64,000 bases of DNA from an uncultured Bacilli bacterium (GTDB taxonomy: Bacteria > Bacillota_I > Bacilli_A > RFN20 > CAG-826): NCBI GenBank assembly GCA_934700895.1, contig CAKUXV010000004.1, forward strand, positions 75,765 to 139,764. The letters are read 5' to 3'. Positions 7,845 to 40,731 of the stretch are shown piece by piece (the first letter of the stretch is position 1; each line of letters opens with the position of its first letter). Below the pieces are notes generated by a model. That model worked only from the letters and a program-made list of their open reading frames with translations. It was not told where the DNA came from and did not search any database. A program made the position numbers and the translations under genes.

Positions 7845-8591
7845 TTATAGTTTATCATATTCCTCATTCGTAACCTTTTCGCACCATTCATTACTTGTAT
7901 TTTCTCCTGGTACTTCTATCGCTAAATGACTAAACCATTTATCTTTTTTTGCACCATGCCAATGTTTAACATTGGCTGGAACGGTTACTACATCTCCTAT
8001 TTTTAAACTTTGAGGCTTTTTGCCTTCTTCTTGATACCATCCTTCTCCATCAACACAGATTAAAATTTGACCACCACCTTCTGTTGCCTTATGAATATGC
8101 CAATTATTTCTACAACCTGGTTCAAAAGTAACATTTGCTATAAATACTTTTGTTTCGTTAGGATTTGTTAATGGTTTTAAATATGAATTTCCAACAAAAT
8201 ATTTTGCAAATGATGTGTTAGGTTCTCCAATTCCAAAAGCTCCTCCATGAGTTTTTTGTGTTTCTTCATTTGCATATACTTCATTTATTAAAGCAAAAGC
8301 ACTCCACGCTTTTGGCCATCCAGAATAAAAGGCTAAATGTGTTACAATTTCAACTGCTTCTTCTTTTGTAATTCCATGTTTTTTTCCCATGACAAAATGT
8401 GATTTTAATTGCGGAAATAAACCTTGTGCCATTAAAGCTGATATTGTAATCATGCTTCTATCCCTTAACGATAGTTTATCCTCTCTATTCCATATTTCTC
8501 CAAACAATATATCATCATTTAGTTCAGCAAATTTTGGAGCTAACTTTCCTAAATTTTCTCTGCCTGCTGTTTGTTTTTCCATAAATATCAA
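7845..8591 (-). CDS. Carboxymuconolactone decarboxylase (AhpD-like)/cupin two-domain protein
   Basis: N-terminal CMD/AhpD-like helical domain ('...HLAFYSGWPKAWSA...') fused to a C-terminal cupin beta-barrel ('...NNWHIHKATEGGGQILICVDGEGWY...PANVKHWHGA'). AT-rich. Confidence 0.65.
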   Translation of the reverse strand: MIFMEKQTAGRENLGKLAPKFAELNDDILFGEIWNREDKLSLRDRSMITISALMAQGLFPQLKSHFVMGKKHGITKEEAVEIVTHLAFYSGWPKAWSAFALINEVYANEETQKTHGGAFGIGEPNTSFAKYFVGNSYLKPLTNPNETKVFIANVTFEPGCRNNWHIHKATEGGGQILICVDGEGWYQEEGKKPQSLKIGDVVTVPANVKHWHGAKKDKWFSHLAIEVPGENTSNEWCEKVTNEEYDKL

Positions 8592-9146
8592 TTCCTTTCC
8601 AAAGATAAAGCAACTGTTACATTACCTTTTTCTAATATATTTTTAATTTTTCCTGATTTATATCTTCTATATATCCCAATTTTGTAAAACCCCCAACTAT
8701 TTGTATCATAGTAAATTACTAATTTGTTCATTTAACGCTTTCTTCTTTTGATAACGAACTTCTTCATTATTTCCTTCATCAAAATATCCATTTGCTTTTT
8801 TTCATATCATACATAGTTACAGCAACCGTTGCTTTAATCCTTGGATCAAGCGATGTAGCATTTAACGCCATACCGCCCAAGCCACATATCTCAATAATGC
8901 CAATGTGCTCCTCGTCTACATTATCCAAAGACGACAAAACATATCTGCAGCAAGCGTTATTCCAGATCTATAGCAAACGTTACCTTTCTTCTGTTGACAT
9001 CATTATATCTAGAAAATGTCTTGTCCCATTTTTCTATCAAATTCTTTATTTTGATTTTGCTCATATCTATCTTCCTATTTTAGAATCATATGTAATATAA
9101 CATCAGTTTTGTAGCGCTCAACGAAAGCCTTCCAACAAAACCGCTA

Positions 9147-9590
9147 TCATTCTTTTGACTTTTGGATCTCTTCTTTTATATCGTATAATTTATTCAACAA
9201 TTCATTCAGTTTTTTGTTTAATAAGCCACCGTTTTTTATTGATTCATAAGCCTTCTCCTCTATCTCATATAGTTCTTGTAGCATTGAAGAAGCATATTCT
9301 TTTCCTTCATCAGTCAATTTAACACTCAATTCTCTTTTCTCACCTATAATTTGACTTAAGAAGACATAACCATCCGCTTCCAATTCCTTAATAATTGTAT
9401 TGATCGTAGTTCTAGGCAAATCCCATGTGTCACATATTTCTTTTTGACTATGCTCTTCCCCATCGTTCAAAGCATACAATATCCATAAAAGATTAGGCTT
9501 GACTGACTTCTCTTTAGCATATTCGGTATAAAACCCATCTATGCTGTAGATAAGCTTTCCAAATTCGTAAAAAAATATTCTAGAATTCAT
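9147..9590 (-). CDS. MarR/winged-helix family transcriptional regulator
   Basis: 147-aa protein with a central wHTH ('...SQKEICDTWDLPRTTINTIIKELEADGYVF...'). AT-rich; adjacent to the tmRNA 3' end. Confidence 0.6.
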   Translation of the reverse strand: MNSRIFFYEFGKLIYSIDGFYTEYAKEKSVKPNLLWILYALNDGEEHSQKEICDTWDLPRTTINTIIKELEADGYVFLSQIIGEKRELSVKLTDEGKEYASSMLQELYEIEEKAYESIKNGGLLNKKLNELLNKLYDIKEEIQKSKE

Positions 9591-9834
9591 ACTTTAACTT
9601 TCCTGTTAAAATCCTAATTCGTATTATAATACCAAAACCACTTTTCAGTCTACTCTTTTACAGTATTTTCACTTTTTTCATCCGTCACGTAGTCTTTTTT
9701 CTTTTCTAGATTGTTTAACTTTCAATCCTTTTAGAGTGATAGAGAGACACCGCGCTGAAGAGGCAAAAACGAATCAAAAACAAGTTGCAATAAAAAAGGT
9801 TTAACACAAATTGTATTAAACCTATGTTTTCTTA

Positions 9835-10231
9835 TGGTGGAGTCGCGGGGAATCGAACCCCGGTCCGAAGAAAGTCCCCACACAGCATCTACAGTTTAGG
9901 CAGATTCGTTAACCCAGATCCGTCGAACCTACCAAGGGCGAATAAGGGGCGGCAGTTCATTTTCGTCCAACTTCCCCTGCCAAGAAGCCAGCTTATCGCC
10001 TTATCTTGCGCCTATCCCATGCCAAGGCGTGAACGCATGGGTAGACGTGCTCGCCCGCGATACGCGGAACCCTATGTCGGGTGCTTAATTAAGCAAGAGC
10101 AACGGACGCGCAACGGTTGTTGAGCATCCAGGGTTTGACAGTTTTGTCAGTTATTGTTTTTTGGTATTAAGGTTTACCAGACCACTGCATCCGTGCGTTG
10201 ACGGTTTCCCCGTCAAAACCAGTACGGCCCC
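9835..10231 (-). ncRNA. ssrA: tmRNA (SsrA)
   Basis: Minus-strand 5' end 'GGGGCCGUACUGGUUUUGACGGGGAAACCGUCAACGCACGG...' and 3' end '...CGGACCGGGGUUCGAUUCCCCGCGACUCCACCA' form the canonical tRNA-like acceptor/T-arm with CCA. An internal reading frame ends '...GUU GCU CUU GCU UAA UUA A', giving a tag ending VALA. Length is about 397 nt. Confidence 0.85.
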
Positions 10232-38771: not shown

Positions 38772-39888
38772 TTAAGAACGCACTCCACCCAGAACCATCG
38801 ACTCCTCTAGCACATTTTTGCATTTTTGAATGATGGCTTTTGCTTCATCCATATTTAACCGATTGTTTTTTGCCACTAGAAGCATGTCTTGATCCGTAAT
38901 CCCCTTGCCTTTGCCATTAACCGATGCAGTGTGTTCCCCGAAATAGGTCCGCCCAGGTGTAATGTCATAAGCGGGGGACAGACGATACACTTTATTTGCA
39001 GCGTCAAACAAAAACGAAAAATTCTTCGCGTGATCGTCTTGGTTATCAATGAGAACATTAAAAACCATTCTTCGATACATCTCCGCGACCTCTTCATTAT
39101 CTTCGGTTAAGATTCTAGTCAGCTTAATCAAGTCATTATAATCCAATACAGGGGCACGAAAATCGCATTCCAACAATGCGGCGGCACTGATCATATGGAC
39201 CTTATCATTTTGATAACGGTCAAACCTTTTAATTAGGAAATACTTTCCGCCTTTTTCCGATGTGACTAATTCGATATCCGGAATACGGATTCCGCACGAT
39301 TTGGAGAGAGACATGTATCGGAATTCAAGATCGGCGATGTCTTTTGTATCAAAACGGGAAGAAAATTTGACAATCCAGTCTTCGCCTTTATAACGAATCA
39401 AGGATTTTGGTCTAGCCCCGCCGCTAGATCCACCCAGCGAATAAAGAGTATCAATGTCTTGTACTTCTTTCGAATCCAATAAAGCATTGCATTCTTCTTG
39501 AATCAGATCGAAATCGATGATGTCCGGTTTGGCGGCTTGGCTAAAATCAGGCGCATATTCAAGCAAGCCCATCCCGGATGACCCTACATAAGCCAATCGG
39601 TCGAGAGGAGACAGGGATCGTATATCGATCTTCTTTTGTCTCTAAAAACGCTCTAGCAGCAATTCACCATAACTGTCAGGGAGGGAATCCGCAAACACCC
39701 CAAATAGGCCTCTAAAATAAGGGGAGGACGACACAAACAACCGTCTAGATAACGGGAGTTTAAATGGATTAAGAGAAAATCCGTTTTGAACCCATTCGTC
39801 ACTATATTAAAAAGCGATTCGGTGATCTTTGGTTAAAGCCAACGTACCAACCAATGTTTTATTTGCCAATACGTCAATCTTCTTGATC
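38772..39888 (-). pseudogene. hipA: HipA-family Ser/Thr kinase toxin gene: one continuous ~372-codon frame interrupted by two in-frame stop codons (TAA at codon 28, TAG at codon 85)
   Basis: Hand translation of the minus strand gives 'MIKKIDVLANKTLVGTLALTKDHRIAF*YSDEWVQNGFSLNPFKLPLSRRLFVSSSPYFRGLFGVFADSLPDSYGELLLERF*RQKKIDIRSLSPLDRLAYVGSSGMGLLEY...' with no frameshift. The N-terminal pattern matches the HipA N-subdomain (…VG.L…F.Y.PEW…SLSLPL…F..LLPD). Downstream the P-loop-like 'SLGGSSGGARPK' and catalytic 'DNQDDHAKNFS' match HipA 'AGAQEK' and 'DDHxKNFS'. The ATG overlaps the last codons of the upstream XRE gene. Confidence 0.65.
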
Positions 39889-40164
39889 ATGCAAAACCTC
39901 CTCGATGGACGTATATTCTTTGCGAACCTCAAATAAGCGATCTAAGTCTTCGTAAAGTCGAAGACTCATTGCAATTTTGATGAAAGAAGCAAAAGAGATA
40001 TCCCCCGTATTTTCAAATTTTCTTATCGTGGCATACGGAACACCAGAAAGAACGGAAAGACGCTTTTGGGATATCTTCCTGTTTTTTCGAATCGCAACGA
40101 GGCGTTTTGCGATTTCCATTTGTTGTTCGTAATAAGTTTTAAAAAGTAATGCTTGTTCTTCCAT
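39874..40164 (-). CDS. hipB: XRE-family HTH transcriptional regulator (HipB-like antitoxin)
   Basis: 96-aa product with a canonical HTH_XRE ('IRKNRKISQKRLSVLSGVPYATIRKFENTG'). Its stop overlaps the hipA-like ATG by 17 nt, and a duplicated palindromic operator lies immediately upstream. Confidence 0.75.
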   Translation of the reverse strand: MEEQALLFKTYYEQQMEIAKRLVAIRKNRKISQKRLSVLSGVPYATIRKFENTGDISFASFIKIAMSLRLYEDLDRLFEVRKEYTSIEEVLHDQED

Positions 40165-40222
40165 TTGCTACTATAATAGCACTTTTTTATCATTCTTTAA
40201 ATTTTTTGCTACTATAATAGCA
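40165..40222. promoter_or_regulatory. Two identical 17-bp copies of TTGCTACTATAATAGCA (imperfect palindrome containing TATAAT) upstream of the XRE gene: putative promoter/operator pair
   Basis: Copies lie at 40165-40181 and 40206-40222, 41 bp apart. The first abuts the XRE start codon with no Shine-Dalgarno sequence, suggesting a leaderless transcript and autorepression. Confidence 0.5.
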
Positions 40223-40239
40223 GTTTAGTGACAAAGAGT

Positions 40240-40731
40240 TTAATAAATGATTCCTTGTTTGTTCGTCGTAGGAACAGCGATATTAATTTCGGAGGAGCTG
40301 AAGTCAAAAACGCATTTTCCGACGTTAAAGGAGATGTGCAGCACATCATCCACTTCAGAATAATGGAATTCATCCGTCATATCGGCCATCCGATCTTCGA
40401 TTTCCGTATTGGTCGAATTCATTGTTAATCCATAGACCGTAATTTCGGGGTCCGTGATATGGATACGAGTAATCGCCCGCTTATCTTCGGCATCGGGATA
40501 ACCAGACGACAAATAAGTAACGTGAACAGCGGGTGCAACGGCCATATCTCCACTTGTGTCTGCAACATATCGATGGTCGAGGTATTCTTCCGCTCCAAAC
40601 CAACCCGGCAGAAGCGTGCAGCCTTTTTCTTTGAATTCCTGGCTTTCCACTCTTTCCGTAACCCAAAATTCAAGGCTGGTATCCGCGGGTTTCTTCAAAT
40701 AGAAAGTGGAACAGCTAAACAATGTAGCCAT
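40240..40731 (-). CDS. Hypothetical protein (163 aa), acidic, no recognisable domain
   Basis: Intact ORF between the TA module and a GC-richer noncoding stretch. No signal peptide or motif recognised. Confidence 0.45.
   Translation of the reverse strand: MATLFSCSTFYLKKPADTSLEFWVTERVESQEFKEKGCTLLPGWFGAEEYLDHRYVADTSGDMAVAPAVHVTYLSSGYPDAEDKRAITRIHITDPEITVYGLTMNSTNTEIEDRMADMTDEFHYSEVDDVLHISFNVGKCVFDFSSSEINIAVPTTNKQGIIY

Follow-up and report, generated by a model that had tools for sequence, protein, structure and literature searches.

A hipBA-type module that is very probably eroding toxin-first in an uncultured human-gut Bacilli lineage

We analyzed a stretch of 64,000 nucleotides (nt) of contig CAKUXV010000004.1 from an uncultured Bacilli bacterium, hereafter called the window, and focused on a gene of the HipA kinase family and the XRE-family gene that precedes it on the minus strand. 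In all likelihood, the two form a hipBA-type toxin-antitoxin (TA) module that is eroding toxin-first, in which hipA is a dead pseudogene and the XRE gene and its promoter are intact. Such a state, with hipA a pseudogene and the rest of the hipBA-type module intact, is ordinary in evolution and has been described before. For the annotation of the locus, it means that the 274-amino-acid (aa) "HipA_C" open reading frame (ORF) and the seemingly non-coding 277 nt upstream of it are one hipA pseudogene, and not a truncated kinase or a HipS/HipT pair. The coding features of the module are as follows.

38772..39890, minus strand: hipA pseudogene, HipA family, from translation, Pfam Couple_hipA and HipA_C matches and intact, syntenic 372-aa orthologues that are 91-94% identical
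39890-39888, minus strand: ATG of hipA, from translation
39807..39809, minus strand: nonsense codon 28, TAA, which is CAA (Gln) in orthologues, a C>T transition, from alignments
39642..39644, minus strand: nonsense codon 83, TAG, which is TTG (Leu) in orthologues, a T>A transversion, from alignments
39555..39875, minus strand: HipA N-terminal domain homology, Couple_hipA, aa 6-112, with both stops inside (Pfam PF13657, 1.2e-16)
38811..39428, minus strand: HipA_C kinase core homology, aa 155-360 (Pfam PF07804, 4.1e-50, above the 30.5-bit cut-off)
38772..39596, minus strand: residual 274-aa ORF with a TTG start (266 aa from the ATG at 39572), from the ORF list
38925..38927, minus strand: hipA codon 322, GCA (Ala), which is Thr in every intact relative examined
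39897..39903, minus strand: Shine-Dalgarno sequence of hipA, GAGGAGG, within the 3′ end of the XRE gene, from the sequence; duplex energy -12.5 kcal/mol
39874..40164, minus strand: intact XRE-family helix-turn-helix (HTH) gene, 96 aa, HipB-like (HTH_3 1.7e-5; HipB and Y4mF NCBIfam matches below their cut-offs)

Read on the minus strand, positions 39890 to 38772 form one frame of 372 codons plus a terminal TAA, with exactly two internal stops, and translation of hipA in the window stops after 27 residues. A first-pass annotation, made by a model from the sequence alone, had proposed a single HipA frame with two nonsense codons, of which the ORF track would show a 274-aa product only. Translation and the Pfam matches to Couple_hipA and HipA_C bear this out, and the ORF list holds only the TTG-start ORF at 38772..39596. 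Two details needed correction: the frame was said to begin at 39888, where the ATG does lie but which is the last of the three positions that it spans (39890-39888), and the second stop, given as codon 85, is codon 83 (39644-39642). In a Pfam search of the conceptual product with the stops masked, a check that the annotation had suggested for the readthrough product, the Couple_hipA match spans both stops and the HipA_C match covers the kinase core, at the values listed above. The Couple_hipA region (PF13657) aligned with residues 8-101 of Escherichia coli HipA. In the kinase core, the Gly-rich loop GGSSGGARPK, the catalytic motif DDHAKN and the Mg-binding motif AYD are still readable, and their counterparts align in E. 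coli HipA.

The absence of an N-terminal match had been named beforehand as the observation that would weaken the single-gene interpretation; codons 1-82 by themselves match Couple_hipA at 9.1e-11. TAG83 lies at about position 66 of 99 in the Couple_hipA profile and aligns near E. coli HipA residue 76, which places it inside the domain and not at a boundary. Of the uninterrupted ORF joining N-domain and kinase that characterizes HipBA, the homology is present and the ORF is broken at codons 28 and 83. Because the N-domain homology is present, the ORF is interrupted and the orthologues of sister species are uninterrupted, we regard the window gene as a pseudogene of a HipBA family member. No second copy of hipA or of the XRE gene was found in the window.

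Related loci were collected through protein and locus searches from many independent human-gut assemblies with a shared chromosomal neighborhood, in which the gene order is rpsF-ssb-rpsR, a 163-aa ORF, the XRE gene, hipA, a flavodiiron (ODP/flavodoxin) gene and an AraC-GH39 gene. The window lineage was defined by at least 98.5% nt identity across the locus and ~99% in the flanking genes, and comprises 12 other assemblies. Loci with ~91% nt identity and the same synteny were assigned to sister species, because their flanking genes are 90-92% identical. Intact versions of the gene, which the annotation had suggested seeking at orthologous loci, are the rule there: hipA is uninterrupted at every sister locus and has CAA28 (Gln) and TTG83 (Leu), one locus (L006) being readable to codon 366 only, where its contig ends. 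Intact syntenic 372-aa genes come from three GTDB species-representative genomes and six metagenome contigs, the sister-species representatives carrying the labels "uncultured Mollicutes bacterium UMGS153" and "Bacilli bacterium", and another 12 cluster members that were read have an intact 372-aa hipA alike. Among the 13 assemblies of the window lineage, no intact hipA allele was found, and the lesions are distributed as follows.

L010, L011: TAA28 only
L001, L002: TAG83 only
L009: 1-nt deletion at codon 47 only
Window: TAA28 and TAG83
L022-L028 (eight assemblies): TAA28, TAG83 and a 1-nt deletion at codon 239

Two further loci, L029 and L030, are a re-sampling of two of the L022-L028 contigs. 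An exact look-up of five "repaired" hipA haplotypes in a collection of 15 billion proteins gave no match, which is a weak negative, and the 274-aa TTG-start version was absent from the same collection; the exact 266-aa product of the window is on record on three contigs (NCBI, Logan, ENA). A scan of genome contigs returned the sister species only, with a best match of 94%, the window lineage not being among the matches, and a megablast of the locus against plasmids returned no match.

Because each stop is present in several assemblies that are independent and differ in sample and source, we take the stops to be real, and sequencing error is excluded as their cause. Each is also found alone in other assemblies, in agreement with the earlier proposal that the two nonsense mutations are independent. 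The same proposal had described two nonsense codons and no indel as an unusual decay pattern, a description that does not hold: 1-nt deletions are present in sibling alleles (codons 47 and 239), the haplotype backgrounds on which the double-stop allele is found recombine, and both nonsense changes are ordinary single substitutions (C>T and T>A).

At 38772-40239 and in the homologous loci L001-L030, recombination within the lineage was very high. The codon-28 and codon-83 states exist in all four combinations (four gametes), and the Hudson-Kaplan minimum number of recombination events (Rmin) is 7, with 65 incompatible site pairs among 28 informative sites in 1.4 kb and five haplotypes. The window allele equals the TAA28-only haplotype (L010) at codons 28-50 and the TAG83-only haplotype (L001) at codons 83-96, after which there is another switch. 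The simplest reading of these data is that null hipA alleles are reshuffled by homologous recombination in the population; sequential mutation is a possible alternative route to the double-stop allele.

Constraint on hipA is relaxed in the window lineage. Its segregating variants comprise 15 nonsynonymous and 10 synonymous changes, plus 2 nonsense mutations and 2 frameshifts, compared with 28 nonsynonymous and 68 synonymous changes in the intact relatives (Fisher p = 0.009), and the mean ratio of nonsynonymous to synonymous polymorphism (pN/pS) is 0.44 in the window lineage versus 0.09 in the intact relatives. The 274-aa ORF looks like a mechanical remnant that lacks a usable ribosome-binding site: at its restart codons, the Shine-Dalgarno duplex energies are +0.4 kcal/mol (TTG at 39596) and -3.6 kcal/mol (ATG at 39572), against -12.5 kcal/mol at the native hipA ATG. 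In eight related assemblies, the 1-nt deletion at codon 239 breaks this ORF further. The intact kinase would be toxic, and the broken gene would probably give no residual product.

The XRE gene overlaps the hipA ATG by 17 nt. The earlier suggestion that hipA was once translationally coupled to a HipB-like gene fits both this overlap and the strong GAGGAGG in the 3′ end of the XRE gene. Of the 21 loci compared in both lineages, 17 encode an identical XRE protein and four encode a protein with one substitution (M66L in L011, T46M in L028 and V90I in L012 and L013); between the lineages, there are 6-9 synonymous differences, with a mean pN/pS of 0.01, and the exact sequence is present on 253 contigs. 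We consider the protein a putative HipB-like antitoxin/repressor, and an XRE-family analogue, not an equivalog, of E. coli HipB, because its HipB and Y4mF NCBIfam scores are sub-threshold. Within the window lineage, its conservation is statistically uninformative, the variants being too few. To call it an orphan regulator, as had been proposed, therefore goes beyond the evidence: the gene is intact, but the variants are too few to speak of selection after the loss of hipA.

Upstream of the XRE gene, there are exactly two copies of the 17-mer TTGCTACTATAATAGCA, which lie at 40165-40181 and 40206-40222 with their starts 41 bp apart; 0 of 100 shuffles gave a match. The predicted regulatory features are as follows.

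40165..40181, minus strand: predicted proximal operator copy (TGCTATTATAGTAGCAA on the gene strand), which overlaps the -10 element and abuts the XRE ATG, from the repeat search; arms conserved in relatives
40206..40222, minus strand: predicted distal operator copy, 41 bp ahead of the proximal copy, with the -35 element just downstream of it, from the repeat search; arms conserved
40173..40201, minus strand: sigma-70-like promoter, TTTAAA (40201-40196), 17-nt spacer and TG-n-TATTAT (-10 element at 40178-40173), from a promoter scan

The first-pass annotation had reported these two identical 17-bp copies and their distance of 41 bp correctly. It had also described each copy as a palindrome centered on TATAAT, of which a part stands: a perfect TATAAT is present, but it lies on the plus strand, opposite to the gene, the gene strand having TATTAT with an upstream TG, and the 16-nt core of the repeat is an imperfect palindrome that matches at 14 of 16 positions. 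The -10 element ends at 40173, 8 nt ahead of the XRE ATG at 40164. Transcription is predicted to start at this ATG or 1-2 nt ahead of it, which would make the mRNA leaderless or nearly so, and the ATG lacks a Shine-Dalgarno sequence, as had been noted (duplex -0.1 kcal/mol). The -35 element is polymorphic at 40199, with TTTAAA in the window, L001 and L002 and TTGAAA in the other strains of the lineage and in the sister species; TTGAAA is closer to the consensus, so that a promoter-weakening polymorphism appears to be segregating.

The promoter layout is kept in relatives whose HipA is 63-72% identical, including a metagenome-assembled genome (MAG) of the Bacteroidota (Sodaliphilus sp.). It consists of two TGCTA-N6-TAGCA palindromes ~41 bp apart (roughly four helical turns), a -35 element between them (TTGAAA in Bacilli-type relatives and not evident at the Sodaliphilus locus), and a second palindrome that overlaps the -10 element and ends 0-3 nt before an ATG that has no Shine-Dalgarno sequence. 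The arms of the palindromes are invariant in the relatives and the spacer is divergent; no further operator sites were found in the 64-kb window. The XRE protein would autorepress its own promoter by binding at these palindromes, and the leaderless, autorepressed promoter proposed earlier is plausible and backed by comparative conservation, with the binding and the transcript start being predictions. The Sodaliphilus locus (L008:1318-2725) contains the same module of an XRE gene and a 372-aa-type HipA (63% aa identity), with the same TGCTA-N6-TAGCA operator pair and an ATG that abuts the second operator. The presence of this copy in another phylum suggests that the module spreads horizontally among gut bacteria.

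We propose the following history. The module occupies a chromosomal site between rpsF-ssb-rpsR and the flavodiiron gene in an uncultured human-gut Bacilli lineage. In the ancestral, intact state, which the sister species have kept, a leaderless mRNA would be made from a promoter flanked or overlapped by the two 16-bp palindromic operators and would encode the 96-aa XRE repressor/antitoxin and a 372-aa HipA-family Ser/Thr kinase toxin, translation of the kinase being coupled through the strong Shine-Dalgarno sequence in the 3′ end of the XRE gene. In the window lineage, the kinase gene has in all likelihood been killed by point mutations of codon 28 (CAA>TAA) and codon 83 (TTG>TAG), which end translation after the 27th residue. 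The two stops segregate separately in the population and would have been joined on one haplotype by recombination or sequential mutation, and in other strains the double-stop haplotype has the further frameshift as well. The XRE gene, the operators and the promoter have stayed intact and presumably still autorepress.

Several observations weigh against this history. The conservation of the XRE gene within the window lineage could reflect that too little time has elapsed, since four loss-of-function lesions in the 1119 nt of hipA predict only ~1 in the 291 nt of XRE. At 0.44, pN/pS falls short of the neutral value of 1; the polymorphism is probably in part older than the inactivation, and weak residual constraint on hipA in the window lineage is formally conceivable. 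The kinase motifs are intact in the 266/274-aa remnant, which is roughly a HipT-like core, and trace expression of an active fragment is likewise formally conceivable in strains without the codon-239 frameshift. Finally, the 13 assemblies of the lineage are a small sample, in which some may come from related hosts, and an intact allele at low frequency could escape it. The absence of intact alleles is accordingly compatible either with selection against the kinase or with drift and small sampling.

Adaptive loss of the toxin is the alternative that survives best, and we consider it unlikely. Under this explanation, positive selection would have favored repeated loss-of-function alleles, perhaps starting from a substitution at codon 322, and the XRE gene and operators would be kept as an immunity or anti-addiction factor against mobile hipBA relatives circulating among gut phyla or as a co-opted regulator. 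In its favor are the number of different inactivating lesions, at least four, and the lack of an intact allele in 13 assemblies, as are the unchanged XRE protein in most loci and the mobility of related modules, with homologues on plasmids and in the Bacteroidota MAG. Codon 322 encodes Ala in 6/6 alleles of the window lineage (GEHTTSVNG to GEHTASVNG) and Thr in 8/8 sister alleles and 118/118 more distant homologues, so that Thr322Ala is fixed in the lineage at a position otherwise invariant in the subfamily. The substitution may have been an earlier hit ahead of the stop codons, relaxing selection on hipA. However, the wider HipA family does not keep this Thr, and because Legionella HipT has Leu/Ala in the segment aligned with codon 322, Thr322Ala as the primary inactivating hit cannot be judged. 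With an Rmin of 7, moreover, single-lesion haplotypes can be obtained by recombination among broken alleles, and independent hits on intact backgrounds are not needed to explain them. The small sample, the lack of extra operator sites in the window and the uninformative XRE conservation within the lineage also argue against adaptive loss.

A functional split kinase resembling HipBST, which the annotation had also raised, is far less probable, and we consider it very unlikely. On this view, the XRE protein would play the part of HipB, with the N-terminal piece serving as a HipS-like antitoxin and the C-terminal piece of 266/274 aa as a HipT-like toxin. The codon-107 ATG does lie near the end of the N-subdomain-1 homology in the alignment with E. 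coli HipA, which makes the remnant resemble HipT with its kinase motifs intact, and in the TAG83-only loci L001 and L002 gene callers give an 82-aa Couple_hipA ORF followed by a 266-aa HipA_C ORF. In the window, however, the HipS-like piece is itself cut at codon 28, and TAG83 falls within Couple_hipA instead of at its boundary. The ~23 codons that separate the stop from the ATG would go untranslated. The restart codons have no Shine-Dalgarno sequence, as described above. The split arrangement is not conserved either, the stops being polymorphic within the lineage and absent from the sister species, in which, as in 118/118 more distant homologues, the two parts are fused. The kinase part alone carries 13 nonsynonymous and 6 synonymous variants in the variant list of the window lineage, and many strains add the codon-239 frameshift.

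Among the terminators of 29 ordinary long ORFs in the window are 22 TAA and 2 TAG and, because both codons end such ORFs, the window uses the standard genetic code. The weakest explanation, to which we give hardly any weight, is that the stops arose as errors of sequencing or assembly, or that a suppressor tRNA, pyrrolysine-type recoding or an alternative code lets translation pass them, so that hipA would really be intact: both lesions are frame-keeping single-base substitutions and the tRNA inventory reaches over the window only, where a transfer-messenger RNA (tmRNA) alone was found, but each stop recurs across independent assemblies, TAA and TAG are normal terminators here, the stops replace ordinary Gln and Leu codons, frameshifts are added in many strains and constraint is relaxed. 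Stop-codon readthrough had been put forward by the annotation as well; a conserved stop, as expected of programmed recoding, is not seen at either position, both stops being polymorphic among relatives that otherwise have CAA and TTG.

Some observations concern the neighborhood of the module. In one related strain (L024:3380-4595), the flavodiiron (ODP/flavodoxin) gene appears in the gene calls as two pieces of 235 and 189 aa and not as one of 409 aa; it may be a second pseudogene beside the decayed hipA. The 163-aa ORF between rpsR and the XRE gene (40240-40731, minus strand) has no Pfam match; every related locus retains it, with a called length of 163, 166 or 179 aa. A low-GC stretch at 8001-10231 (0.34 versus ~0.47 for the window) contains the tmRNA gene, and an Rfam scan of the window found no other RNA gene.

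9835-10231, minus strand: tmRNA (Rfam, 125.7 bits)

The locus resembles the HipBA system of E. coli K-12 in several respects. An HTH gene is followed by a kinase gene with overlapping and coupled reading frames; the kinase combines a HipA N-terminal domain with a HipA_C domain, and its Gly-rich loop and its catalytic and Mg-binding motifs are present; and palindromic operators, here predicted ones, overlap the promoter. Homologues on plasmids (36-46% identity) are annotated as "type II toxin-antitoxin system HipA family toxin". The E. coli hipBA operon has four TATCC-N8-GGATA operators, whereas we predict two TGCTA-N6-TAGCA operators. The HipA of the window is also distant from E. coli HipA (E = 1.5e-12) and shorter (372 aa versus 440 aa), the antitoxin is below the HipB/Y4mF NCBIfam cut-offs, the mRNA is apparently leaderless and the kinase gene in the window is a pseudogene. 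For a large, uncharacterized subfamily of ~370-aa HipA modules, the comparison of relatives defines a predicted operator (TGCTA-N6-TAGCA, present twice at a distance of ~41 bp) and a probable leaderless promoter.

The likeness to HipBST of E. coli O127 and Legionella pneumophila is superficial and consists of an HTH gene, an N-subdomain-like fragment and a kinase core without N-subdomain 1. HipS/HipT systems have a separately encoded, conserved HipS of ~100 aa and a HipT that lacks that subdomain (PMC8262856). In contrast, the fragments described here stem from recent polymorphic nonsense mutations inside a domain and have no independent translation signal, and their arrangement is not conserved, the N-terminal fragment being 27 aa in the window and 82 aa only in the TAG83-only strains. 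Neither a stand-alone hipS of ~100 aa nor a selected hipT with its own start is present at the locus.

Our observations leave the current understanding of TA biology unchanged and agree with what has been reported for decaying modules. Toxin-first decay of chromosomal TA loci has been documented for TA erosion in Photorhabdus (Belot et al. 2026, PMC13617665) and, as cited in a passage of PMC7167474, for the decay of ccdO157 in E. coli (Mine et al. 2009). As in the published cases, point mutations or small indels have inactivated the toxin gene beside an intact antitoxin, the lesions differ among strains at a conserved chromosomal position, intact copies exist in related lineages, and constraint is relaxed. 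What differs is that the toxin belongs to the HipA family and that the host is an uncultured gut Bacilli lineage, the case being documented from metagenome assemblies alone. The locus offers a clean natural case of toxin-first chromosomal TA erosion, with at least four lesions shuffled by recombination in one uncultured gut lineage.

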